Assembly: GCA_030059675.1 (NCBI GenBank)
Contig: JANVYQ010000006.1
Location: 47,940-111,939 of the forward strand
DNA: 64,000 nt
From: Candidatus Pelearchaeum maunauluense
GTDB lineage: Archaea > Thermoproteota > Nitrososphaeria_A > Caldarchaeales > Caldarchaeaceae
Direction of reading: 5' to 3'
Part shown: positions 380 through 57,522 of the stretch, piece after piece
Layout: every line of letters starts with the position of its first letter
Numbering within the stretch: position 1 is the first letter of the stretch
Position numbers and translations under genes: made by a program
The notes under the pieces: model-generated
What the model saw: only the letters and a program-made list of their open reading frames with translations
Told to the model about the DNA's origin: nothing
Database searches by the model: none

Positions 380-1708
380 ATGGTGAAGGCTCTAATGGGG
401 AGGTCGGCCAGCGAGATAATAGAGAGGGACTCGCGTCTCTTTATGCGCTGCTACCCGGCCCGTACAAAACTCGTAATAGCACGTGGCCGTGGAGCTGAAG
501 TATGGGATGTTGAGGGAAAGAGATACTTAGACCTCTTCTCAGGTATTGCGGTGAATAACGTAGGCCACTGCCATCCGCGCGTTGTTGAAGCTATACGAAG
601 GCAGTCTGAGGAACTTATACATACGTCCATGCTCTATTATAACGAGACTGTGCTAAAGCTTGCCGAGAAGCTGGCTGGAATCGTGCCCAGCGGTCTCTCC
701 CGTTTCTTCTTCGCCAATAGCGGGGCTGAGGCTGTTGAAGGGGCTGTGAAGCTGGCCAAGAAGTATGCGGCAAAACGCGGTATGGGGGGAGCGCAGGTAA
801 TAGCTCTTGACTGCTCCTTTCATGGACGGACATCACTAGCGCTAACCCTGACAGGCCAGAAAAAGTATAAACAAGGCCTGGGGAATTTCGCCAACTCTCC
901 AGGCGTTGTGCACGCGCCCTCACCATACTGTTACCGCTGTCCCCTGGGTCTCAGATACCCAGAATGCGGAATAGCATGCGCAGATGCCCTAGAGAGGGTT
1001 TTTGAGTTTAGAACCTCTGGAGAGGTTGCCGCCGTTATTGTTGAGCCTGTACAAGGGGAGGGTGGAATAATAGTCCCGCCTGACGAGTATCTACCGCGTG
1101 TGCAGAGCATATGCCGCGAGCATGGCGCTGCGTTTATCGTGGATGAAGTCCAGACAGGGCTTGGGAGAACTGGCAAGATATTCGCGGCAGAACACTGGGG
1201 ACTTGAGCCTGACATAATGACCATGGCTAAGGCGCTTGGGGGAGGGCTCCCAATAGGAGCTATAGCTGCGCGCGAAGAGGTAGCTAATGCTTTCGAGGCT
1301 GGAGACCACTTCTCAACATTCGGCGGCAACCCAGTATCATGCGCCGCTGCTATAGCTGCCATAGATGTCCTCATTGATGAGAAGCTGCATGAGAGGGCTG
1401 AGAAGCTGGGAAATCTTCTGCTCAAAATGTTTAGAAATGCTCAGGATGAGGCCGAGCTCATAGGCGATGTGAGAGGGAAGGGGCTTATGATAGGTATTGA
1501 GCTGGTTAAGGATAGGGAGGGTAAGCAACCAGCGTCTGACGAAGCAAGCAAAACCAGCGAGGAAGCGCTGAAGAAAGGCATCATAATAGGCGTGGGAGGA
1601 GTGAAAAAGAATGTCATAAGAATACAACCACCACTGGTCATAACTGAGGAACAGGCACAGAAAGCAGCGGAGGAAATCATCGCAATAATCAAACAGATTA
1701 AGAAATGA
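380..1708 (+). CDS. Class III PLP aminotransferase (4-aminobutyrate/acetylornithine aminotransferase-like)
   Basis: NSGAEAVE, SFHGRT, EPVQGEGG, DEVQTGLGRTG, AKALGGG, STFGGNP. Confidence 0.92.
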   Translation: MVKALMGRSASEIIERDSRLFMRCYPARTKLVIARGRGAEVWDVEGKRYLDLFSGIAVNNVGHCHPRVVEAIRRQSEELIHTSMLYYNETVLKLAEKLAGIVPSGLSRFFFANSGAEAVEGAVKLAKKYAAKRGMGGAQVIALDCSFHGRTSLALTLTGQKKYKQGLGNFANSPGVVHAPSPYCYRCPLGLRYPECGIACADALERVFEFRTSGEVAAVIVEPVQGEGGIIVPPDEYLPRVQSICREHGAAFIVDEVQTGLGRTGKIFAAEHWGLEPDIMTMAKALGGGLPIGAIAAREEVANAFEAGDHFSTFGGNPVSCAAAIAAIDVLIDEKLHERAEKLGNLLLKMFRNAQDEAELIGDVRGKGLMIGIELVKDREGKQPASDEASKTSEEALKKGIIIGVGGVKKNVIRIQPPLVITEEQAQKAAEEIIAIIKQIKK

Positions 1709-1763
1709 ACAGCCTGTTCTATTATCTAGAAATAAATACATCCAGCAGGCTCTTATTTTTGAG

Positions 1764-2210
1764 ATGAAAGAGGGTTATGCATCTATTCTAGCTGCATCAC
1801 TGGTGTCTGTGGCTGTTATTGCTGTGGGTTTTCTCGTACTGAGCTGGCAGCAGTGCCAATACACTACCACGCTTGTAGAAGACGCTGCCCTTAGACGTGA
1901 TGGTGTTGTGCTAATAAGTAGCGTAGGAAAATGCGGAAGCCTGGAAAAGCCTACAATAACGTATAAAAGGGCTGGAGAATACCTAATCCTAACATACAGC
2001 GAGCCAGCTAACAATATCTGCTACCGCCACATCATAGAGAGTGTCAAAACCCAGGAAGGAGATACGCCGCTAATTAGGATAGAGCTACGCCTAGTAGAGA
2101 CGAGCGAGGCCTGTGTTATGTGCGTAGGCTACATAACAACAACACTCACTATAGGCCCGCTGCCCGAAGGGGCGCGGGTGTATGTTAATGGCTTATTGGC
2201 CGCTGCGTAA
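1764..2210 (+). CDS. Membrane-anchored/secreted hypothetical protein, Cys-containing
   Basis: N-terminal hydrophobic helix, 148 aa ORF, AT-rich TATA-like segment about 30 nt upstream. Confidence 0.7.
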   Translation: MKEGYASILAASLVSVAVIAVGFLVLSWQQCQYTTTLVEDAALRRDGVVLISSVGKCGSLEKPTITYKRAGEYLILTYSEPANNICYRHIIESVKTQEGDTPLIRIELRLVETSEACVMCVGYITTTLTIGPLPEGARVYVNGLLAAA

Positions 2211-2223
2211 AAGGCTTATATAG
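2209..2223 (+). promoter_or_regulatory. Putative BRE/TATA box of the leader-lysC-aro operon
   Basis: AAAAGGC-TTATATAG; predicted start of transcription about 2245-2250, just upstream of the leader SD. Confidence 0.65.
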
Positions 2224-2248
2224 AAAAAGGGAAATCAAACAAAACACG

Positions 2249-2396
2249 ACCAGGAGGTGCGCGTGGTGAGGGCAGTAGGACTAACCTGTACAGGCTTTAG
2301 CGCCTTCACCACGTTTAGCTATTATTATCGCTGGTAAGCCGCCTCCGGTTTCGGTTCTTGTTTGTTCCTTTTTCTCCGTTTCTGGGGGGTGGTTTT
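2249..2396 (+). promoter_or_regulatory. Putative attenuator RNA: alternative pairings plus U-rich tract
   Basis: 12-bp stem 2262-2273/2302-2313; segment 2336-2346 can pair with 2253-2259 or with lysC SD 2385-2395; pyrimidine/U tract about 2355-2383. Confidence 0.65.
2263..2337 (+). CDS. Putative aromatic-amino-acid leader peptide, MVRAVGLTCTGFSAFTTFSYYYRW (24 aa)
   Basis: GGAGGT SD at 2253-2258, GTG starts at 2263/2266, 3 Phe + 3 tandem Tyr + Trp among the last 13 codons, directly upstream of chorismate-pathway operon; not in ORF track. Confidence 0.8.
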   Translation: MVRAVGLTCTGFSAFTTFSYYYRW

Positions 2397-3620
2397 ATGG
2401 GCAAAATAGTTGTAGTGAAGTTTGGTGGTTCTGTCCTCTCCGATGAGCGAAGCATAGAACGCGCAGCTAGGTGGTTGAAGGGTCTCCGTGATAAGGGCTT
2501 AAGCCCTGTTGTCGTCGTTTCGGCTCTACGCGGCGTAACTGATGAGCTACTTAAGACAGCACAGCGCCTAAACCCCGAAGCCCCACCTGAGCTCATGGAT
2601 GAAGTACTCGCCATGGGCGAGAGAACCAGCGCGAGGCTCTTCGCATTAGCCCTAACCAGAGAAGGCGTGGACGCCCTCGTGGTAGACCCAGACTCTACGC
2701 TATGGCCTGTTATAACCGACGAGAAACACCTAGACGCTACGCCTATACTGGACGAATGCAGGAGAAAAGCCTCCGAGGGTCTTCTGCCAGAGATTGCGGC
2801 AGGTAGGGTTCCAGTGGTCTGCGGCTACATAGGGGTATCCAAGACTGGGCGTATAACCACGCTGGGACGTGGGGGAAGCGACACTACAGCGGTTCTCCTA
2901 GCCAACTGTCTAGATGCCGAGGAGGTCGTCTTGGTGAAAGATGTGGGCGGGATACATTCGGCAGACCCGCGGAAGACACGAGAAGCCGAGGTGATAGAAA
3001 CCATGAGCGCCTCTGAGGTTCTCCAGCTAACCACCGGTGGCGCCAAGGTGCTCCACGCAAAAGCGCTACGCTATATGAATGACAGTATGAGAATACGGGT
3101 AGGGACTCTTGAATCCCTTGAAGAAGGCGGGACGCTCATAACAGCTTCAGGTATGCCAAAACTGGAGGTGGTGGCTACCCACGATAACGTGACGATGGTT
3201 ACTATAATTGGTAAGGATATGGGAGAGCCTTCGAAATTGGCGAAAATGGTGGAAGCCCTCGTGGAGGCTGACGCGAACCTTTTGGCAGCGTCAATAGAGG
3301 AGAACTCGCTAATAATATACTTGGATGGTGATGGTGATGTGGTGGAGAAACTGCATGACCTTCTCGTATCCAGCAGGCTTGGGAAGGCGATAAGCCACTT
3401 CCCAAACCTCAGTATGATAAAAGTTTCAGGAACCATGCTGGAGACAAGCCCAGGCGTCATTCACAAGATAACACAACCCCTAGCAGCGCAGGCGATAAAT
3501 GTCTATGGCCTTGTTACGATAAGCTCTTCTGTCCGCCTTTTCGTCTCGTCCAAAGAAGCCTCAAAGGCTATTAACTTGATACGTGACGGGTTGAGGGAGG
3601 TAGTGGATGAAGCAGCTTAA
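2397..3620 (+). CDS. lysC: Aspartate kinase with ACT domains
   Basis: KFGGS, VVSA, TTLGRGGSDTTA, KDVGGIHSADP; start moved to ATG 2397 behind GGGGGTGG SD. Confidence 0.95.
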   Translation: MGKIVVVKFGGSVLSDERSIERAARWLKGLRDKGLSPVVVVSALRGVTDELLKTAQRLNPEAPPELMDEVLAMGERTSARLFALALTREGVDALVVDPDSTLWPVITDEKHLDATPILDECRRKASEGLLPEIAAGRVPVVCGYIGVSKTGRITTLGRGGSDTTAVLLANCLDAEEVVLVKDVGGIHSADPRKTREAEVIETMSASEVLQLTTGGAKVLHAKALRYMNDSMRIRVGTLESLEEGGTLITASGMPKLEVVATHDNVTMVTIIGKDMGEPSKLAKMVEALVEADANLLAASIEENSLIIYLDGDGDVVEKLHDLLVSSRLGKAISHFPNLSMIKVSGTMLETSPGVIHKITQPLAAQAINVYGLVTISSSVRLFVSSKEASKAINLIRDGLREVVDEAA

Positions 3621-4662
3621 GGTAGCTATACTGGGAGCAACTGGGCTGGTGGGCCAGCACTACATAAAACTGCTAGCGCGGCACCCTTGGTTTAAGATAG
3701 CGACACTTACGGGCAAGGAGTCTGTAGGCAAGAAGTATGCGGAAGCTGTCAGAGGCGAGGCTCCAGACCCGCCTAAGGAGATAGCCGAGATGGAGGTAGT
3801 TCCCACAGAGCCAAAGTATGTTGATGCTGATTTTGTATTCTCCTGTCTCCCTACTGAGGCTGCTCGTGAGGCTGAGCCGAGTTTTGCGAAGGCAGGCTTC
3901 CCAGTGGTAAGTGACGCCTCGGCGCATAGGATGGATGATGATGTGCCGCTCATAATACCAGAGGTTAATCCAGGGCATCTGAAGCTGGTGGAAGCCCAGA
4001 GAAAAAGACGTGGCTGGGATGGCTTTATAGTAACAACGCCAAACTGCACTACCGTAGGGCTTGCGCTAACCCTATACCCGCTCCACAAGACGTATAACAT
4101 CAGAAAAGCCGTTGTAACCACCATGCAGGCAGTATCTGGCGCAGGCTATCCGGGGGTTCCCTCGCTCTCAATAATGGGAAACGTCATACCATACATATCT
4201 GGCGAGGAAAAGAAGGTGGAGGTAGAAACCCTAAAGATACTCGGAAACCTTGAGAACAGTATAGTAAAACCTGCCTCGCTGGAAATAGAAACTACATGCA
4301 CACGCGTTCCTACGATAGATGGGCATCTTGAGTCTCTGCATATAGAGGCGGAGCGGCCAATAAACGTGGATGAAGCCAAATCCGTCTTGGCCGAGTTTAC
4401 TTCCGTGCCGCAGGAGCTTAACTTACCAACCGCTCCGCGTAGGCCGATAATCGTGAGGGAGGAGCAGGACAGGCCGCAGCCTAGGATAGATGCCGACGCA
4501 GGGACAGTGCCAGGGATGAGCGTTACGGTAGGCAGGGTAAGGCAGGGAAAGAGGCCGACAACTCTTAACCTTCTGCTCCTGAGCCACAACTTAATACGAG
4601 GCGCCGCAGGCGTCGCTATACTCACGGCAGAACTAGCGCATCATTACGGGATGCTGAGGTGA
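3607..4662 (+). CDS. asd: Aspartate-semialdehyde dehydrogenase (archaeal type)
   Basis: GATGLVG, PNCTT, QAVSGAGYPG, RVPTIDGH, SHNLIRGAAG. Confidence 0.96.
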   Translation: MKQLKVAILGATGLVGQHYIKLLARHPWFKIATLTGKESVGKKYAEAVRGEAPDPPKEIAEMEVVPTEPKYVDADFVFSCLPTEAAREAEPSFAKAGFPVVSDASAHRMDDDVPLIIPEVNPGHLKLVEAQRKRRGWDGFIVTTPNCTTVGLALTLYPLHKTYNIRKAVVTTMQAVSGAGYPGVPSLSIMGNVIPYISGEEKKVEVETLKILGNLENSIVKPASLEIETTCTRVPTIDGHLESLHIEAERPINVDEAKSVLAEFTSVPQELNLPTAPRRPIIVREEQDRPQPRIDADAGTVPGMSVTVGRVRQGKRPTTLNLLLLSHNLIRGAAGVAILTAELAHHYGMLR

Positions 4663-4671
4663 ACTAATGCT

Positions 4672-5454
4672 ATGGTCTTCGGAAAACAGGTTCGCCTAGC
4701 AAGAATAACCGAGAACGGCAGAATGCTCTGCATACCCATGGACCACGGCGTAAGTGAAGGTCCTATTGCCGGTCTTGAGAATATCCATGATATGATGTTT
4801 ATGCTTGAGGATGCGGGTGTAACGGCTCTACTCGCGCATAAGGGGGTCTTTAGAACGCTTCCACGTCCCCTAAAGGTTGGAGCAATAATGCATATGTCGG
4901 CTAGCACGAAGCTCAGCAGTAAGCCCAACTGGAAAGTCCAGGTGGCGTCAATAGAGGAGGCAATAAGACTGGGCGTTGACGCTGTTTCGGTCCATGTAAA
5001 TATAGGAGGCGAGGATGATGCTGATATGTTATCCACGCTGGGGAGAATCGCGGATGTTTGCGACGACTTACAGATACCTTTTATCGCTATGATGTATCCG
5101 CGTGGCCCTAATATCAAGGATGATCGCGATCCTTCTGCGATAGCGCATGTGGCTCGAGTGGGAGCGGAGCTGGGGGCAGACATCGTAAAGACACCCATGC
5201 CGTCGGCTGAGCCTGATGAGATTAGGAAAGTCGTCAGGAGCTGCCCTGTACCTGTGGTGGCTGCTGGCGGGCCAAAGATGGAGCGCGACGAGGATGTTCT
5301 AAGGCTAGCGTGGGCGGTTATCCAAGGCGGCGGCATGGGAATAACCTTCGGTAGAAACGTCTTCCAACACAGCAGGCCGCGGCAGATTGTAAAGGCGCTC
5401 CGCGAGGTTATCTTCAACGGCAAGAAGCCTGAGGAGGCTTTACAAGTGGTATGA
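4672..5454 (+). CDS. aroA': 2-amino-3,7-dideoxy-D-threo-hept-6-ulosonate (ADH) synthase, DhnA-type class I aldolase
   Basis: PMDHG, AMMYPRG, ELGADIVKT, GRNVFQ; adjacent to type II DHQ synthase. Confidence 0.9.
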   Translation: MVFGKQVRLARITENGRMLCIPMDHGVSEGPIAGLENIHDMMFMLEDAGVTALLAHKGVFRTLPRPLKVGAIMHMSASTKLSSKPNWKVQVASIEEAIRLGVDAVSVHVNIGGEDDADMLSTLGRIADVCDDLQIPFIAMMYPRGPNIKDDRDPSAIAHVARVGAELGADIVKTPMPSAEPDEIRKVVRSCPVPVVAAGGPKMERDEDVLRLAWAVIQGGGMGITFGRNVFQHSRPRQIVKALREVIFNGKKPEEALQVV

Positions 5455-6470
5455 AGCGGGTAATTATAGCGTTCAATAAATGGGATGAGCAGCTCGTACA
5501 GAAGGCAGCGAGGCTGGGGTTTAGGGAGTTTCTGGCCGAAAATCCAGAACAAGCACCGAGAGATGCTATAATCTATCTGGAGGAGTCTGGGAAGCGTCTC
5601 AAGCTAGCTGCAGATGGTAAGAGGGTGGAGGTTCCAGTTGTGCATGTAAAGACGCCCACCGACCTTGAGCGTGTGGTTGAGCTGGGCAGGGCTGGGGCTG
5701 GAGAGGTGCATGTTAGGGCTGGAGACTGGAAGATAATTCCTCTGGAGAACCTTATCGCTATGAAGCGTGGGCTTAAGATAGACGTGATAGCTGAGGCTGG
5801 CTCGCCCTCTGAGGCTGAGCTCATGTTTGGGATACTTGAACAGGGTGTTGATGGTGTAGTGGTGAGGGTAGCAAACGCGGGTGAGTTGGAGCTGATTAAT
5901 GACGTGGCCAAAGCACCGACAAGCCTCAGACTTGACGAGGCGGTGGTGGAAGAGATAAAGGATGTAGGGATGGGTGATAGGGTATGCGTGGATACTGTTG
6001 CTGTTCTTGAGTATGGTGAGGGGCTTCTAGTGGGAAGCATGGCGCGCATGTTCTTCCTAATACATAACGAGTCGGTAGGCTCTGCATTTACGTCGCCGAG
6101 GCCGTTTAGAGTAAATGCTGGCGCTGTCCATAGCTATGTCCTTATGCCAGATGGTAAGACGAAGTATCTCTCTGAGATAGGTGCGGGTGATAGGGTGTTG
6201 GTGGTCAGCAGTAAGGGGAAGACACGCATAGCTGCTGTAGGGAGGGCGAAGGTTGAGCGCAGGCCTATGCGGCTCGTAAGAGCGCGGATAGGAGAGAGCT
6301 GGGGAGCGGTAACAGTCCAGAACGCAGAGACCATAAGATTCGTAACACCAGACCATAAGCTCATATCTGTAACCGAGCTAAAGGAAGGAGATAGAATACT
6401 CTGCCACATGGCACCTGAGAAAGCGAGGCACTTTGGAATGGCTGTAGATGAGATGATTATAGAGCGTTGA
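5451..6470 (+). CDS. aroB': 3-dehydroquinate synthase II (archaeal)
   Basis: DWKIIPLENLIA, GDRVCVDT, PRPFRVNAGAVHSY, QNAETI, RHFG. Confidence 0.95.
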   Translation: MKRVIIAFNKWDEQLVQKAARLGFREFLAENPEQAPRDAIIYLEESGKRLKLAADGKRVEVPVVHVKTPTDLERVVELGRAGAGEVHVRAGDWKIIPLENLIAMKRGLKIDVIAEAGSPSEAELMFGILEQGVDGVVVRVANAGELELINDVAKAPTSLRLDEAVVEEIKDVGMGDRVCVDTVAVLEYGEGLLVGSMARMFFLIHNESVGSAFTSPRPFRVNAGAVHSYVLMPDGKTKYLSEIGAGDRVLVVSSKGKTRIAAVGRAKVERRPMRLVRARIGESWGAVTVQNAETIRFVTPDHKLISVTELKEGDRILCHMAPEKARHFGMAVDEMIIER

Positions 6471-6473
6471 AGA

Positions 6474-7157
6474 ATGAAGACAAGACTCTGTGTATCAACC
6501 TACGGTAATGATGTCGGAGAGCTGTCGCATAGGATAGGCGAAGCCCTAGACGCTGGCGCCGAGCTGGTTGAGGCAAGGCTTGACTACCTAAAACTAATAG
6601 AGCCAGAGACGCTGGTAAGAGTTCTCAAACCATATGCTGACAAGCTCATAATAACTCTTAGACCAAAAAACCAAGGAGGACTATACGTTGGAGACGAAGC
6701 CCATAGAGTATCAATGCTCACTAAGCTATGTAGAATATCGCCAGCTTATGTTGATGTGGAACTTAATGCGGCAACTCCAACTCTCATAGATAGCATAAAG
6801 CGAGAAAATGTGAAAATAATAATCTCTTGGCACGACTATACTAGAACACCTGAGCAGGATTTTCTAAGGAACCTCTGTGAGAAGGCTCTCACTATGGGTG
6901 ATGTCGCCAAAATAGTTACGCTCTCAAGTTGTGAAGAAGATAATCTACGTGTGGTTAAGCTATACGCCTACTATCCGCCTGAGCGTTTAGTGGCTTTCTG
7001 CATGGGTGAATCTGGCAGAGTAACGCGCTTGCTGGCGGTGTGCGCTGGAGCGCCTATCATGTATGTGTCTCTTGGAGGGAGAGCCACGGCGGCGGGGCAG
7101 ATTGAGCTGGAAGAGATGAGGAGGCTCAGAGGCTGGGCGCTGGTGAAGAAGGCATGA
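6474..7157 (+). CDS. aroD: Type I 3-dehydroquinate dehydratase
   Basis: EARLD, TLR..QGG, YVDVEL, ISWHDY, KIV, FCMGE.G. Confidence 0.92.
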   Translation: MKTRLCVSTYGNDVGELSHRIGEALDAGAELVEARLDYLKLIEPETLVRVLKPYADKLIITLRPKNQGGLYVGDEAHRVSMLTKLCRISPAYVDVELNAATPTLIDSIKRENVKIIISWHDYTRTPEQDFLRNLCEKALTMGDVAKIVTLSSCEEDNLRVVKLYAYYPPERLVAFCMGESGRVTRLLAVCAGAPIMYVSLGGRATAAGQIELEEMRRLRGWALVKKA

Positions 7158-8008
7158 AGAATAGGGGAAAGATATACGGTGTTATTGGAGACCCTATAGA
7201 GCACTCAGTATCGCCAGCCATGTTTAACGCGGTCTTCAGAGAAGCTGGCCTATGGGATAGCATATACACAGCCATACGCGTAGCGAGTAATGAACTCCAG
7301 CAGCTCGTCAGAGCAATTCGTCTCCTTCCTTTTGGAGGAATTAACGTAACAATACCCCATAAAGTCAGTATTATGCGTTATCTAGACCTGCTTGACGAGT
7401 CTGCAGAAGAAGTGGGGGCTGTTAATACCGTGCATGTGGCTGGTGAGGAGCTGGTTGGCTATAATACGGATATGTTGGCCGTCATGAGAGTACTTAAGCA
7501 GTTTAAACGCGCTGGAGACGGGGCTGTTGTTCTTGGATGCGGAGGTGCCGCCAGAGCCGCCGCCATAGCGCTCAGAGAACTATCCATCAATAAACAGACC
7601 TTCGTTGGCAGAAGTAGGAAAAGAATGCGGGAGATGAAGAGATTCACCGCAAGTCGCGGGATTGACGCAGAAATCATAAGCTTTCAAGATTCCAAACTAA
7701 ACAGCGTCCTTGAAAAAAGTAGTGTTATAATAAATGCAACACCAGTAGGAATGTATCCAAATGTTAAGAGCACACCTATATATTCCTCGTTAATACCGCG
7801 CGGTGCTGTCGTATTTGATATGGTCTATAATCCAGAGGAGACTATGCTACTCAGAGCTGCCAAGCGAAGGGGAGCGCGTATAATCGGTGGGTTGGAGATG
7901 CTGGTGACGCAAGCTGAGGAAGCTTACCGTATATGGTTTGGTAGCCGCGCGCCGCGTGATATTATGATGAGGGCTGCACGGAACGAGTTGAGGAGGTTTA
8001 AGAAGTGA
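7154..8008 (+). CDS. aroE: Shikimate dehydrogenase
   Basis: GDPIEHSVSP, NVTIPHK, GAVNT, YNTD, NATPVG, DMVYNP. Confidence 0.95.
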   Translation: MKNRGKIYGVIGDPIEHSVSPAMFNAVFREAGLWDSIYTAIRVASNELQQLVRAIRLLPFGGINVTIPHKVSIMRYLDLLDESAEEVGAVNTVHVAGEELVGYNTDMLAVMRVLKQFKRAGDGAVVLGCGGAARAAAIALRELSINKQTFVGRSRKRMREMKRFTASRGIDAEIISFQDSKLNSVLEKSSVIINATPVGMYPNVKSTPIYSSLIPRGAVVFDMVYNPEETMLLRAAKRRGARIIGGLEMLVTQAEEAYRIWFGSRAPRDIMMRAARNELRRFKK

Positions 8009-8874
8009 AAGGCTACGCAAAAGCTTTTGGCGCTGTATCAATAGTTAATGCAATAGCAGCAGGCCGCGGGTCGGCTTTAGGAATAGACCTATACACCGAA
8101 GCTAGTGTGGAGATAACCAATAAAACTCAAGACATAATTTTAAAGTCTGAGAATAATATTGGAGATTCTTCTCTTACGCGTGAAGTTTTTAGAATTATCG
8201 CCGAGAGGATAGGCTTGGCGGATGTTGGAGCGCTGATAAGAACCTCCTCCAACATCCCTGTAGCTGTGGGGCTTAAGAGTTCCAGCTCCTCGGCAGTAGC
8301 TATTGCTTGCGCAGTTCTTGACGCTGCGAGAGCCAGGATGCAAGATGAGGAGCTCTTATCCCTGATAGCAGAGGCTTCCTTAAGGTCGGGGACATCAATT
8401 ACAGGAGCTATGGATGACGCTGCTGCATGTATGCTTGGAGGGCTTGTAATAACCGATAACATAGGTAGAAAGCTCTTAAAACGGGTTGAAATACACGACC
8501 GCCTCTATGCGGTTATACACATACCCGAGCAGCAAAGAATATTCACACGTGACTTTAGAAAAGAGTTGTTATACCCTGTGAAGAGGCTGGTTGAGGAGGC
8601 GTTTAGGCTTGCATTAGAGGATAGGTACTGGGATGCGATGACGCTAAACGGCCTGCTCCACGCGGCGGCGCTCTCCATCCCAGTAGCACCAGCGTTAGCC
8701 GCGTTAAGAGCAGGCGCCTTGGGGGCTGGGCTATCTGGAACAGGCCCCGCAACAGCTGCGATATGCACAACAGACAAACTAGATGCCGTTAGAGAAGCCA
8801 TGGAAGAGTATGGTGGTATGGTAATAGTTGCTCAGGTGAGCAATAAACGTGCAATAATTGGTGGCGGGTTTTGA
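8005..8874 (+). CDS. aroK: Archaeal GHMP-family shikimate kinase
   Basis: AVSIVNAIA, GLKSSS, SITGAMDDA, GLSGTGP. Confidence 0.93.
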   Translation: MKGYAKAFGAVSIVNAIAAGRGSALGIDLYTEASVEITNKTQDIILKSENNIGDSSLTREVFRIIAERIGLADVGALIRTSSNIPVAVGLKSSSSSAVAIACAVLDAARARMQDEELLSLIAEASLRSGTSITGAMDDAAACMLGGLVITDNIGRKLLKRVEIHDRLYAVIHIPEQQRIFTRDFRKELLYPVKRLVEEAFRLALEDRYWDAMTLNGLLHAAALSIPVAPALAALRAGALGAGLSGTGPATAAICTTDKLDAVREAMEEYGGMVIVAQVSNKRAIIGGGF

Positions 8875-10157
8875 TAACTGAGATAAGAAGAACATGTATT
8901 GATGGCGAGATAACCGTACCACCTAGCAAAAGCTATACCCACAGAGCAGTAGCTTTGGCGCTGCTGGCAGAAGGCGAATCCTATATAGAACGGCCACTAA
9001 TATCAACAGATACTGAAGCAACAATCCATGCAGCAAAACAGTTAGGAGCCAACATAAAGATGAAAGATAACTTACTCGTTACTACTGGGCGTAAACGCCT
9101 AAGATGCCCCGAAGACGTTATAAACGCAGAGAACTCTGGAACAACGCTACGTTTCTTCACCGCCATAGCTGCCTTGGCTGAAGCAGGTTATACTATCATA
9201 ACAGGCGACGAAAGCCTCAGACGACGGCCTATGGATGCTCTTTTGGGCGCTCTTACAAAGCTGGGAGTTAGCTGCTGGTCATCTAAGGGTGATGGAACTG
9301 CACCGATAATAGTTAGGGGAGGTGGTATAAGAGGTGGTGAGACCAGCATAATAGGCTGGCAGTCATCACAGTTCATCTCCGCAATACTCATAGCGGGACA
9401 GAGAGCAGATGGTATGATAACACTACGTGTGGGAGGTGAGCCAGTCTCCAAACCCTACATAGACGCAACAATCGCGATGATAGAGCGGTTTGAAGGATGT
9501 GTGGAGAGAAGCGGCTATACGCTCTACACTGTAGGGCATCAGAGAGAGCTTAAAGCAACTGAGTTTAGAGTCCCAGGAGACTTCAGCTCTGCTTCATTTC
9601 ACGTAGCCGCGGCATACCTGTCTGACGGTAGCGTTATGCTAAAGGGTCTGGATAAGAATCTACCCCAAGCTGACGCAGCTATTCTTGACATAGCGTCAAA
9701 GATGGGCGCTGATGTGAATTGGTTATCTGGTAAAGTAGTGGTTAAGGGAAGGGGTACTCGTAAGCCAATCGAGATAAAGCTACGCGACTCCCCTGACCTA
9801 TTGCCAGTGGTCGCTGTAATGGCTGCAGCCACACCTGGAACCAGCACCTTAAGAGACGTTGCACACGCACGCCTCAAGGAGAGCGACAGAATACAGATGA
9901 TAGCCAAAGAACTGACAAAGCTGGGCGTTAAAACTAAGATTCTCGAAGACGGCTTGGAAATAACTGGGCTGGAACAACCCGAAGGAGGTGTAACGATAGA
10001 CTCCCACAACGACCATAGGCTTTTCATGGCCTTTACCGTGCTTGGCCTAGCATGCAAGAGAGGACTACGAATAACTGGAGCAGAATCAGCTGGTGTCTCT
10101 TATCCAGGATTTATAAACGACCTAACTAAACTCGGCGCCGAAATCCGAACAATTTAG
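8871..10157 (+). CDS. aroA: EPSP synthase
   Basis: PPSKSYTHRA, ENSGTTLRF, SSQFIS, RLKESDRI, HNDHR. Confidence 0.96.
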   Translation: MITEIRRTCIDGEITVPPSKSYTHRAVALALLAEGESYIERPLISTDTEATIHAAKQLGANIKMKDNLLVTTGRKRLRCPEDVINAENSGTTLRFFTAIAALAEAGYTIITGDESLRRRPMDALLGALTKLGVSCWSSKGDGTAPIIVRGGGIRGGETSIIGWQSSQFISAILIAGQRADGMITLRVGGEPVSKPYIDATIAMIERFEGCVERSGYTLYTVGHQRELKATEFRVPGDFSSASFHVAAAYLSDGSVMLKGLDKNLPQADAAILDIASKMGADVNWLSGKVVVKGRGTRKPIEIKLRDSPDLLPVVAVMAAATPGTSTLRDVAHARLKESDRIQMIAKELTKLGVKTKILEDGLEITGLEQPEGGVTIDSHNDHRLFMAFTVLGLACKRGLRITGAESAGVSYPGFINDLTKLGAEIRTI

Positions 10158-55345: not shown

Positions 55346-56383
55346 TCACTCCAGCCGCGTGAGCTTTAGAAGGTCATCATGAAGACCTGCCTTAAGAAAG
55401 GCCAAAGCCCGCTTATAGTAGCTCTCAGGGAATGGCGTATAGCCGACCATAGGAACTAGCTGGGGGGCATTCTCTAGGTAGAACTCAACAAAACGCCTAA
55501 GCTCAGGCTTCTCCTCAAACTTCTGCTTATTCACGTATATGAAAAGCGGCCGCGAGAGTGGGTACTTGAATGTTCTTATGTTCTCATCTGTTGGCTCTAT
55601 GCATCCTTCTCCAGCGTTTATCGGGACTGCTCTTATCCTATCCTTCGCTATTGCATAGTAGGCGTATCCGAAGTATGCCAGCGCGTATTTCTCAGCTTCC
55701 ACGCCAGCCACCAGAACATTATCATCCTCACTCGCTACGTAGTCCGTCCTACTAGCGCCAGACTCTCCGACAACATGCTCGGTAAAGAAGTCAAAAGTGC
55801 CCGAATCTGGGCCAGGGCCGTAGAGTTTTATCTCCACATCAGGCCACTCTGGCCGTATATCACTCCATTTCCGCACACCGCTCTTAGGCTCCCAGATTAG
55901 CTTAAGCTCCGCGATTGTAAAACAATCCACCCAATCGTTATCGTTATTCACAACTACTGATAGCCCGTCAATACCTATCGGTATCTCTATCCATTCAACA
56001 CCGTTTTTTTGCGCTCTCTCAACCTCGCTGGGCTCTATCTGCCGCGATGCATCGTTTATATCGGTCTCGCCTTTGATGAACCGTTTAAACCCGCCGCCAG
56101 TTCCAGAGATTCCAACGGTAACCCTAACGTCTGGGTATTCGTTCATGAACGCCTCCGCCACAACCTCGGTTATGGGATACACCGTGCTGGAACCGTCTAT
56201 CACTATACTGCCAGACAGCTCGGAAACGATAAAATCCGTTCCCGTTATTGTAACTGTAACAGTCTTCGCACCGCCTGCGTTTGCTTGAGAACTAAGCATA
56301 TAGCCAAGACCAACACCCAAGAGCAACATTATCATGGCCAAGACCGCCGTGCTGGTTGCGGCTGCGAGCTTGGGTTTACTCAT
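55346..56383 (-). CDS. pstS: Phosphate ABC substrate-binding protein
   Basis: DGSSTVYP, SGTGGG, DSGTFDFF, YPLSRPLF. Confidence 0.95.
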   Translation of the reverse strand: MSKPKLAAATSTAVLAMIMLLLGVGLGYMLSSQANAGGAKTVTVTITGTDFIVSELSGSIVIDGSSTVYPITEVVAEAFMNEYPDVRVTVGISGTGGGFKRFIKGETDINDASRQIEPSEVERAQKNGVEWIEIPIGIDGLSVVVNNDNDWVDCFTIAELKLIWEPKSGVRKWSDIRPEWPDVEIKLYGPGPDSGTFDFFTEHVVGESGASRTDYVASEDDNVLVAGVEAEKYALAYFGYAYYAIAKDRIRAVPINAGEGCIEPTDENIRTFKYPLSRPLFIYVNKQKFEEKPELRRFVEFYLENAPQLVPMVGYTPFPESYYKRALAFLKAGLHDDLLKLTRLE

Positions 56384-56406
56384 CTTCGGGCTGGCGGCCT
56401 GCTAGC

Positions 56407-56470
56407 CATAATATTAAGATAGGCGGTATTCTATATTTAATATATCGTCATCTATATAGAGATATATTGA
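56407..56470. promoter_or_regulatory. Divergent pstS / regulator promoter with AT-rich repeats (PHO-box-like)
   Basis: (C/A)TATAT units at 56431, 56440, 56452, 56462; palindrome TCTATATAGA 56451-56460. Confidence 0.55.
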
Positions 56471-56490
56471 AGCTAGTCTGCCGAATTAGC

Positions 56491-57522
56491 ATGGCCAACG
56501 GCCAGGAGTTCGTCAGGCGATTGCAACAAACTGGCGGAGCCACGCTTATAGTCTCTCTTCCAAAGGAATGGATAGACCGGACAGGGCTTAAGAAGTTTGA
56601 TGAAATACTACTCGTATCAAGTGATGATGGGACACTCCACATAATTCCCCGTAACATGAGCAATAAGACGCAGCAGGAGGAATTCACAGTTGATGTTATG
56701 CCCAACGAAACCGCCGAGGGCGTTTTGAGAGACTACATGTCCGCCTACCTTGCTGGATACAACACTATAAGGATAAGGTTTGACGAGCCCTCACCAGGAT
56801 TGGCTCAGAAGATACGCCAACTGGTGAGGAGATGGCTTATAGGAGTTGAGGTTGTGGAAGAGACAATACATGAGATGGTTACTCAGTGTCTTCCTACGCA
56901 TAATAGCCTTCCCCTGATGAAGGCTTTGGAGAGGATGGGTAGCATTGCTTCTAGTATGCAGCGTGAGGCTGTCTCAGCTTTAGCGGAGCAGAATAAGAGC
57001 ATAGCCCTAGAAGTCGTGCAGCGCGACGATGAGGTTGATAGATTCTACCACTTCATAGTGAGGCAGCTTAACATAGCGGTATCAAGCCCAGTCATATTGA
57101 AGTCTCTCGGCCTCAACAATAGGCAAGACTGCCTAGGATACATGCTGGTAACAAAGAGCATAGAGCGCGCGGCGGACCATGCCTCTTCAATAGCCAACCT
57201 TTCCATGACTCTCCATAGCTCCAAATCATCAATATTGGAGAAGATAGTTGAGGCTGGCTACAGGGCTAATAAGTTGTTTGATGACGCATTAAAGTCAATA
57301 CTCCAGACCGATAGGGAGGCGGCTAAGCAAACAATACAACAGGCGGAGGATGTTACTAAGATGACGCATGAGCTTAATAATCAGTTAATCAGGAAATCAA
57401 TAACATCCACGGCATTGAGGCTTCTTCTGGAGAATATTAAGCGAATAGCTGAATATAGCTCAGATATATCGGAAGTGGCTGTAAATCTATCCGTGAAGAA
57501 GCCTAGGATTAATCTTATGTGA
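56491..57522 (+). CDS. AbrB-PhoU phosphate uptake regulator
   Basis: RRLQQTGG.T..VSLPKEW, RDDEVDR, IERAADHA; ATG 56491. Confidence 0.92.
   Translation: MANGQEFVRRLQQTGGATLIVSLPKEWIDRTGLKKFDEILLVSSDDGTLHIIPRNMSNKTQQEEFTVDVMPNETAEGVLRDYMSAYLAGYNTIRIRFDEPSPGLAQKIRQLVRRWLIGVEVVEETIHEMVTQCLPTHNSLPLMKALERMGSIASSMQREAVSALAEQNKSIALEVVQRDDEVDRFYHFIVRQLNIAVSSPVILKSLGLNNRQDCLGYMLVTKSIERAADHASSIANLSMTLHSSKSSILEKIVEAGYRANKLFDDALKSILQTDREAAKQTIQQAEDVTKMTHELNNQLIRKSITSTALRLLLENIKRIAEYSSDISEVAVNLSVKKPRINLM

Follow-up and report, generated by a model that had tools for sequence, protein, structure and literature searches.

The region upstream of lysC in the genome of Candidatus Pelearchaeum maunauluense raises the question of whether the archaeal ribosome could serve there as a sensor of aromatic amino acids. 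The DNA analysed (the window; 64,000 nt of contig JANVYQ010000006.1, positions 47,940 to 111,939 of the forward strand) contains the operon lysC-asd-aroA'-aroB'-aroD-aroE-aroK-aroA, preceded by a short open reading frame (ORF), here termed the leader ORF, for which an initial annotation had proposed the role of leader peptide in a ribosome-mediated attenuator. Amino-acid-sensing leader peptides are a textbook bacterial mechanism, in which translation slows at a stretch of cognate codons whenever the corresponding charged tRNAs run low; the amino-acid operons of archaea are generally held to be under the control of protein regulators, and 5' leaders in archaea tend to be short. It was found that the leader ORF and its aromatic bias are conserved before orthologous operons, and that a pyrimidine box at the stop codon has two pairing options, namely the Shine-Dalgarno (SD) sequence of the leader itself (SD1) and that of lysC (SD2). 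The comparative data make a role of the leader ORF in sensing Tyr and Phe, and perhaps Trp, very probable. As an explanation of the 5' leader as a whole, we favour on balance a ribosome-mediated aromatic attenuator whose box would toggle between SD1 and SD2.

All features named in the initial annotation, i.e. the TATA element, the SD motif, the ORF opening with GTG-GTG, the aromatic codons, the box and the lysC SD, were found where it had placed them (Table 1), and the 12-bp stem described as burying the leader start was recovered in predicted minimum-energy folds. The encoded peptide is MVRAVGLTCTGFSAFTTFSYYYRW; seven of the final 13 codons are aromatic (3 Phe, 3 Tyr and 1 Trp), and the whole ORF holds four Thr codons. 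From the usual archaeal spacing between TATA element and start site, transcription would begin at about 2245-2248, approximately 15 nt before the leader ORF; a look-up of sequencing runs for this sequence listed no RNA run. A scan of positions 1700-3000 against Rfam with E-values up to 10 gave only two sub-threshold, unrelated matches and no known leader RNA or riboswitch family, and a scan of the leader region for bacterial promoters and terminators revealed small local hairpins only.

Chance occurrence was evaluated with a simple scoring rule, defined as the maximum number of Phe, Tyr and Trp codons among the 14 codons that precede the stop in any frame terminating 15-110 nt upstream of a gene. 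The null set consisted of all 553 genes of the window's genome with an upstream gap of at least 130 nt. Scores of at least 5 were obtained for 20 of these regions, at least 6 for four and at least 7 for two, one of the latter being the leader ORF; no region reached 8. The other three regions scoring at least 6 precede unrelated genes (a split GrpB gene, AdoMet decarboxylase and an RDD gene). The leader ORF is unusual yet not unique in its own genome and, therefore, a single genome could not settle the matter; the comparative data do. While four of 553 upstream regions reaching a score of 6 would leave room for a chance ORF, recurrence in two phyla ahead of orthologous operons, at scores (8-10) absent from the null set, makes such an origin barely credible and, as far as sequences can tell, effectively refutes it. 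As a separate observation, the GrpB locus (L250:488-1008, contig C9 of the window's genome) holds overlapping ORFs for the N- and C-terminal halves of the protein, suggesting a frameshifted or split gene.

The class to which the window belongs comprises one order with 76 species genomes, 39 of which have this lysC type; upstream sequence was available for 38 loci, where 21 scored at least 5 and 12 at least 8. Sorted by genus, aromatic leader ORFs were present at 2/2 loci of g1, 2/2 of g2, 1/1 of g4, 7/7 of g7, 8/8 of g10 and 3/3 of g14. The seven g7 loci attained a rule score of only 4 because the aromatic residues cluster 8-14 codons ahead of the stop; these ORFs carry 5-6 aromatic residues in 23-25 codons. 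Among the 12 loci of g3, three scored 5-6; at another five the ORF is shorter or weaker and has 2-3 aromatic residues, with Trp included at three of these. In the AT-rich f3, two of three loci reached a score of 6, via frames that are not shared. A pattern scan of metagenomes returned 48 matches, of which two g2-like ones (L134 and L151; score 8 each) had lysC downstream and the other 46 were dropped as chance. The orthologous leader ORFs in relatives span 13-29 codons and end about 20-90 nt before lysC, and their peptides share little beyond the aromatic run, without any other common motif.

Beyond the class, a phylum-wide sample of 401 evenly chosen genomes revealed a lysC homologue at E ≤ 1e-50 in 118, and 40 upstream regions from 15 other families were taken. 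Scores of at least 5, 6 and 8 were obtained for 32, 27 and 19 of these regions, respectively, with a maximum of 10 out of 14. A profile scan of contigs with the lysC alignment yielded at least 600 rows, mostly generic aspartate kinases, and was used for a few named metagenome-assembled genomes (MAGs) only; among the matches listed, four of five MAGs labelled Bathyarchaeota or Bathyarchaeia scored 7-10 (the fifth, L037, scored 2), and Nanoarchaeia-labelled, haloarchaeal, Nitrososphaerales-labelled (L047) and Hadarchaeota-labelled loci scored 1-2. In a second phylum (Asgard-labelled; that of the Jordarchaeia-labelled MAG), the gene was found in 12 of 201 sampled genomes, corresponding to 17 loci, 16 of them readable, and four of the ten aro-linked loci scored 6-10. 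Lack of conservation of the upstream ORF (uORF) or of its aromatic codons in relatives had been set as the first refutation test of the attenuator idea; conservation was evident in the class, in the 15 other families and in the second phylum. At L253-L257, also from the Asgard-labelled sample, no aromatic uORF is present; two direct copies of an approximately 17-nt motif lie 60-170 nt upstream of lysC-asd-aroA' and may belong to a different regulator of that operon.

The association with the aromatic uORF was restricted to aro operons in the operon content checked. Copies of lysC linked to dapB served as the negative control: at L217 and L219, from two other families and identified via Pfam DapB_C, lysC follows dapB after a spacer of 22-65 nt and has no aromatic uORF. 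Both are included in the eight of the 40 loci that scored below 5. Judged by sequence, the phylum has distinct lysine-pathway and aromatic-pathway aspartate kinases with differing upstream regions; a second, distant aspartate kinase is encoded elsewhere in the window's genome. The chorismate-pathway operon predicted downstream of the leader was confirmed by Pfam assignment of its eight genes, and the lysC-aro gene order was the same in 10/10 loci checked, one each from ten other families. That lysC and asd head an aromatic operon is explained by the archaeal chorismate route via aroA', which begins from aspartate semialdehyde; lysC and asd would here supply this compound to the aroA' route. 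The Thr codons of the leader ORF, initially regarded as a signal relevant to lysC and asd, are not conserved among the leaders of relatives, and this idea was rejected for that reason. Separately, a conserved uORF of about 10 codons with Trp/Tyr/Phe/Phe was observed before a stand-alone lysC paralogue at L031 and L266-L269 (also L261 and L265). The bases around its start are complementary to a segment lying 35-45 nt further downstream, in a layout resembling that of the aro leaders, and no aro genes follow within the locus.

Several lines of evidence indicate that the leader ORF is read as codons. Over 62 leaders, 46.5% of the residues encoded by the final 16 codons are aromatic, compared with 8.2% in the proteome, with Tyr at 22.9% (proteome 3.5%), Phe at 21.1% (3.6%) and Trp at 2.5% (1.2%). 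The integration of all three amino acids envisaged initially holds for Phe and Tyr, which dominate across the leaders; Trp, found in 23 of the 62, is a minor component. Aromatic columns persist while their codons switch among TTT, TTC, TAT, TAC and TGG, Phe and Tyr interchange, and GC-rich families retain the aromatic run with TTC and TAC. In the g10/g14 alignment, gaps within the ORF are all of 3, 9 or 12 nt, and those before the start or after the stop are not multiples of three. Start signals are likewise present, with an SD-like purine motif 5-9 nt before the leader ATG, GTG or TTG in g1, g2, g4, g7, g10 and g14 and, among SD-led relatives, a TATA-like octamer at a fixed distance of 33-45 nt upstream of that start; in g3, the leader start lies 25-32 nt after the TATA element, i.e. 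the leaders are near-leaderless. A second promoter within the Tyr codons was considered and judged unlikely, the conserved TATA being the upstream one and TGG, TTC and TAC codons not being TATA-like. Recoding or readthrough into lysC was also considered and rejected because the stop-to-start distances of 20-83 nt keep no common frame. At L011:1345-1434 (genus g4), the orthologous leader ORF has no ATG, GTG or TTG, and ATA occupies the g2 start position relative to the SD motif, which points to a non-canonical start or, alternatively, to an error in the assembly.

In the window's family, the stretch from the leader stop to lysC folds as a single hairpin in seven of seven members, in which 11-12 of the 12 SD-region bases are paired, with energies of -19.7 to -23.2 kcal/mol and z-scores of -3.7 to -4.6 compared with shuffles (11 of 12 bases, -20.3 kcal/mol and -3.7 in the window). 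The RNAalifold consensus of this masking hairpin comprises 13 pairs, with 91% of cells paired in register as opposed to at most 68% when slid; the SD and anti-SD cores hardly vary within the family. The cognate duplex of box and SD2 has a mean energy of -24.2 kcal/mol, compared with -16.5 kcal/mol for partners from other genera, and each box bound its own SD2 better in 6-10 of 7-10 cross-genus comparisons per locus. For box and SD1, the corresponding values are -23.5 and -17.8 kcal/mol, a less clean result than that for SD2; this duplex amounts to -16.7 kcal/mol in the window and to -17.9 to -31.5 kcal/mol in relatives. In 9/9 folds of transcripts ending before SD2, the box pairs with SD1, and in full-length transcripts the SD2-masked state is favoured by 2.4-12.4 kcal/mol. 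The dual pairing of the box with either the leader SD or the lysC SD, as suggested in the initial annotation, was thus borne out in the window's family and in g7, cognate partners binding better. The box begins 1-7 nt after the last aromatic codon in the window's family, which is within reach of a stalled ribosome. In g2, the last four codons are additionally paired with the stretch separating SD1 from the start codon, and at L004 (g2) a Phe-to-Ile codon change is matched by a base change in the partner strand. The U-rich tract reported between the leader and the lysC SD did not prove to be conserved even within the family, as L134 and L151 are without conserved T-tracts of 4 or more.

The effect of a ribosome on this structure was modelled by masking 28 nt at successive codons, using thermodynamic folding at 37 °C with assumed transcript ends and no kinetics. 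At L001-L004, the predicted accessibility of SD2 stayed at the level of the free RNA until the P-site reached the last 3-5 codons and then rose, from 0.29 to 0.42-0.53 in the window, from 0.13 to 0.53-0.60 at L002, from 0.09 to 0.46-0.49 at L003 and from 0.17 to 0.31-0.39 at L004. Folding with a ribosome constraint, a check suggested at the outset, therefore predicts a gain in lysC SD accessibility in the window's family.

From these data, the following mechanism can be proposed. Transcription would start some 15 nt upstream of the short ORF, in which Phe, Tyr and Trp codons crowd the 3' half, and the speed of the ribosome through the aromatic run would report the supply of charged aromatic tRNAs. 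Once the lysC ribosome-binding site is transcribed, the box would pair with it in a hairpin of 13-15 bp and block the translation of lysC and, in addition, of downstream genes translationally coupled to it. A ribosome lingering on the last aromatic codons would cover or abut the box, so that the lysC site is left open and the operon is expressed; upon its finishing and leaving, the masking hairpin would form. Pairing of the box with SD1 would close the leader after a round of translation, making it a three-way switch, and the SD1 helix, if formed first, may keep the box away from SD2. Stalling itself, the assignment of the "on" state and a translational rather than transcriptional output are what we infer from these models, and the unmasking of the lysC SD as the specific output is put forward tentatively, at slightly less than even confidence.

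Other lineages present a different leader architecture. In g7, the predictions include a closing helix formed by the last codons with SD1, a hairpin over the start codon analogous to that of the window and a hairpin over the Tyr codons. In g10/g14, the 5' end is paired with Phe-Trp-Ser codons, and a further hairpin holds the stop codon in its loop and shows two compensatory pairs, with 96.8% of cells paired in register as opposed to at most 61% when slid. The other families and the Asgard-labelled loci follow a common plan, in which the aromatic run is separated by 0-3 codons from the stop and a stable hairpin sets in 0-4 nt further on, with SD2 located 2-8 nt past the hairpin and stems that are wholly different between families. 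Over the 62 leaders, structure begins at most 3 nt after the stop in 53 and at most 10 nt after the last aromatic codon in 47, so that the hairpin start falls within or at the edge of the downstream footprint of the ribosome; most exceptions belong to g7 and g10/g14, in which the element begins inside the ORF. Spacers in g3 are 20-32 nt long and without significant structure (z about 0).

A number of results speak against the proposed switch, at least as a general device. In the placed-ribosome folds, the box lies out of reach of a ribosome whose A-site holds the first or second Tyr codon; only positions on the last 2-3 codons and the stop matter, and SD2 is opened by a terminating ribosome too. 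A placed ribosome has little effect on SD2 in g7, and in several members of g10/g14 the accessibility of SD2 drops with the ribosome on the aromatic run (e.g. from 0.41 to 0.11-0.21 at L025). In the 15 other families, where the post-stop hairpin ends before SD2, the accessibility scan revealed no consistent effect. In the window itself, the SD1-paired and SD2-masked states are near-isoenergetic. The covarying anti-SD helices that the initial annotation had suggested looking for did not emerge in the window's family, since 203 of 500 within-column shuffles paired equally well and the formal covariation of the masking hairpin is not significant; with the covariation score of the g10/g14 stop-codon hairpin reached in 18/500 shuffles, the formal tests are weak overall in the two alignments. 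Finally, no leader ORF was found at the four g3 loci L014-L017, and its loss there implies that it is dispensable in some lineages. Masking of SD2 as a universal output was rejected because a consistent accessibility effect is missing outside the window's family, i.e. in g10/g14 and the other families; the read-out probably differs between lineages.

The absence of an SD2 effect in g7 and other families and its inversion in several g10/g14 members make a transcriptional read-out from the same sensor a serious rival, and it may be the ancestral one. The hairpin at the leader stop and a U-rich stretch would here act as an intrinsic or factor-aided terminator or pause site, and a ribosome held on the last aromatic codons would prevent the hairpin, with RNA polymerase reading into lysC. 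Of the structural features, only the stable hairpin that starts 0-4 nt past the stop is common to nearly all families (53/62), and sequences read by eye reveal 5-6 U directly after it in f21, in most of f32, in g62 of f18 and at the Asgard-labelled L262. A translational mask cannot explain these U-tract families, because SD2 lies outside their hairpin. The hairpin of the window's family is likewise followed by 4-6 U, and the window's loop is T-rich and includes TTTTT. An automatic test flagged a U run at most 10 nt from the last paired base in only 3/62 leaders; it relied on approximate lysC starts, which often put the last paired base beyond the hairpin. Against termination, the hairpin comes without a U-tract in the Bathyarchaeia-type g51, g57, g85 and g103 of f14, the short g3 spacers offer no significant structure to act on, and stalling near the beginning of the run would not keep the hairpin from forming; to our knowledge, a dependence of archaeal termination on hairpins has not been established. 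Taken together, we regard the transcriptional variant as unlikely in place of the attenuator acting through SD1 and SD2, albeit the strongest of the alternatives.

Two further readings receive much less weight. With the same sensor, a parked ribosome or the closing helix could shield the mRNA from 5'-to-3' exonucleolytic decay, as do stalled ribosomes on Bacillus erm leaders. Such an output would work wherever in the run the ribosome stalls and would fit the structure-poor, near-leaderless g3 leaders; it gives no account of a hairpin placed exactly at the stop or of the complementarity between box and SD2, and we consider it very improbable. About equally improbable is that the ORF is not a sensor at all, being either part of a structured RNA bound by a protein or ligand, with the aromatic codons as an A/U-rich by-product, or a functional micropeptide. 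Strongly conserved helices do overlap the ORF, and pairing constrains some codons, as in the case of the L004 codon change. This reading is countered by the lack of a matching Rfam family, by an aromatic richness that outlasts changes of sequence, stems and codon choice between families, GC-rich ones included, by the preservation of frame, start signals and triplet indels, by peptides of merely 13-29 residues with no motif besides the aromatic run, and by the restriction of the association to aro operons.

Table 1. Features of the leader and of the operon behind it; positions refer to the window.
Feature	Position (nt)	Strand	Basis and details
BRE/TATA-type archaeal promoter (BRE, transcription factor B recognition element)	2210-2223	+	TATA-like octamer 2215-2222; A-rich BRE-like stretch from 2210
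SD1, SD-like purine heptamer of the leader ORF	2253-2259	+	sequence; also 5' strand of the alternative helix with the post-stop box
Leader ORF, 24 sense codons and TAA (2335-2337)	2263-2337	+	in-frame GTG at 2263 and 2266
Start-burying hairpin, 12-bp stem 2262-2273/2302-2313	2262-2313	+	predicted in minimum free energy folds
Putative aromatic sensor run	2296-2334	+	Phe 2296, 2305, 2314; three Tyr 2320-2328; Arg 2329; Trp 2332
Anti-SD pyrimidine box, predicted 5' arm of the hairpin masking the lysC SD	2336-2348	+	begins at second base of stop codon; 2336-2346 as first described; folds, consensus fold, cognate-partner test
T-rich loop of the predicted masking hairpin	2349-2381	+	T-rich stretch 2349-2383; TTTTT 2370-2374; small CUCC/GGGG local pairing
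SD2, lysC SD region, predicted 3' arm of the masking hairpin	2382-2395	+	G-rich SD 2384-2392; TTTT, then lysC ATG 2397
Putatively regulated operon lysC-asd-aroA'-aroB'-aroD-aroE-aroK-aroA	2397-10157	+	Pfam
lysC, aspartate kinase	2397-3620	+	Pfam
asd, aspartate-semialdehyde dehydrogenase	3607-4662	+	Pfam
aroA', DeoC-type aldolase	4672-5454	+	Pfam
aroB', 3-dehydroquinate (DHQ) synthase II	5451-6470	+	Pfam
aroD (dehydroquinase), aroE (shikimate dehydrogenase), aroK (GHMP-type shikimate kinase)	between aroB' and aroA	+	Pfam
aroA, 5-enolpyruvylshikimate-3-phosphate (EPSP) synthase	8871-10157	+	Pfam

On the other side of the promoter, an unannotated ORF of 148 codons (1764-2210, + strand; stop at 2208-2210) ends 5 nt before the TATA-like element; it gave no Pfam match.

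A survey of other amino-acid operons, likewise suggested in the initial annotation, revealed, in the window's genome, a weak candidate before hisG, a Leu-codon uORF before one leuA-like gene and nothing before a second leuA-like gene and a trpE fragment. The hisG gene (L195:1210-1350; contig C2, about 158190-158333; in g7 at L168, L175, L178, L179 and L181) is preceded, at about 130 nt, by a TATA element and has a 5' leader that is conserved and structured and in which a short ORF ends about 42 nt before hisG and contains 1-2 His codons, two of them adjacent in 2/5 g7 loci. This may be a different kind of leader and is too weak a case for a His sensor. On the minus strand of contig C20 (about 57110-57200), a TATA element, an SD-like motif and a 9-codon uORF with three consecutive Leu codons were found about 90 nt before the SD-led start of a leuA-like gene containing LeuA_dimer (55465-57112), an arrangement known from one genome. 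With the hisG, leuA-like and trpE surveys giving weak or no candidates, no general set of cognate leaders is claimed.

Among known systems, the bacterial pheL-pheA, trpL, hisL, thrL, leuL and ilvL attenuators likewise rely on a short leader ORF crowded with codons for the end product, and bacterial transcription attenuators have alternative pairings over the ORF end and a hairpin just downstream. The archaeal leader differs in belonging to another domain of life, in lacking a canonical 1:2/2:3/3:4 terminator-antiterminator set and in addressing three amino acids, mainly Tyr and Phe, before an operon headed by lysC-asd. Unlike in the trpL/pheL type, the hairpin and U-rich tail of the window's family contain SD2, and the alternative partner is SD1 instead of an antiterminator arm. 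In ermC and cat leaders, the position of the ribosome also sets the pairing of the downstream SD, but these respond to a ribosome-bound drug and a specific nascent peptide and not to charged tRNA. In tnaC-type leaders, a ribosome held at the ORF end similarly masks the RNA right after the stop; tnaC, however, senses free Trp via the nascent chain, and the operon that it induces, through Rho, is catabolic. Closest to the favoured output are the cysteine-responsive leaderless short ORFs of mycobacteria, where ribosomes stalled in the tract are reported to block structures sequestering the downstream ribosome-binding site (10.1101/834739). There, too, an amino-acid-rich ORF precedes cognate genes, and the g3 leaders are also near-leaderless; the mycobacterial ORFs differ in being bacterial, in responding to a single amino acid and in having the masking strand within the tract, whereas the archaeal box is located at the stop and has SD1 as a second partner.

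The initial annotation had described leader-peptide attenuation as barely documented in archaea, and no archaeal precedent came to light in the full-text literature searched: no archaeal amino-acid-sensing leader peptide was found there, a search that had most subscription journals and supplements outside its scope. In the portions available, three papers mention archaea in passing only (PMC1262725, PMC2965389, PMC6393860), and a Methanocaldococcus promoter study reports no enrichment of uORFs in mapped 5' leaders and a ribosome-binding site for hardly any of them (PMC2699501).

It is likely, from the comparative evidence, that leader-peptide sensing is old and widespread in archaeal aromatic synthesis, occurring throughout one large phylum that includes Bathyarchaeota-labelled members and in Asgard-labelled archaea, with lineage-specific read-outs built on one plan. 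If true, a family of archaeal attenuators would thereby be described for the first time, as far as the literature search reaches, and archaeal ribosomes would be used as metabolite sensors. It would imply that, in these uncultured archaea, the first ribosome is functionally coupled to transcription or to the folding of the RNA, and would provide a defined system for the coupling of translation, RNA folding and termination in archaea, for which mutations can be designed from the alignments. The finding also draws attention to short ORFs that are overlooked by gene callers, and the mostly uncultured lineages of the Bathyarchaeia type would have an operon whose regulation can be read from its sequence.

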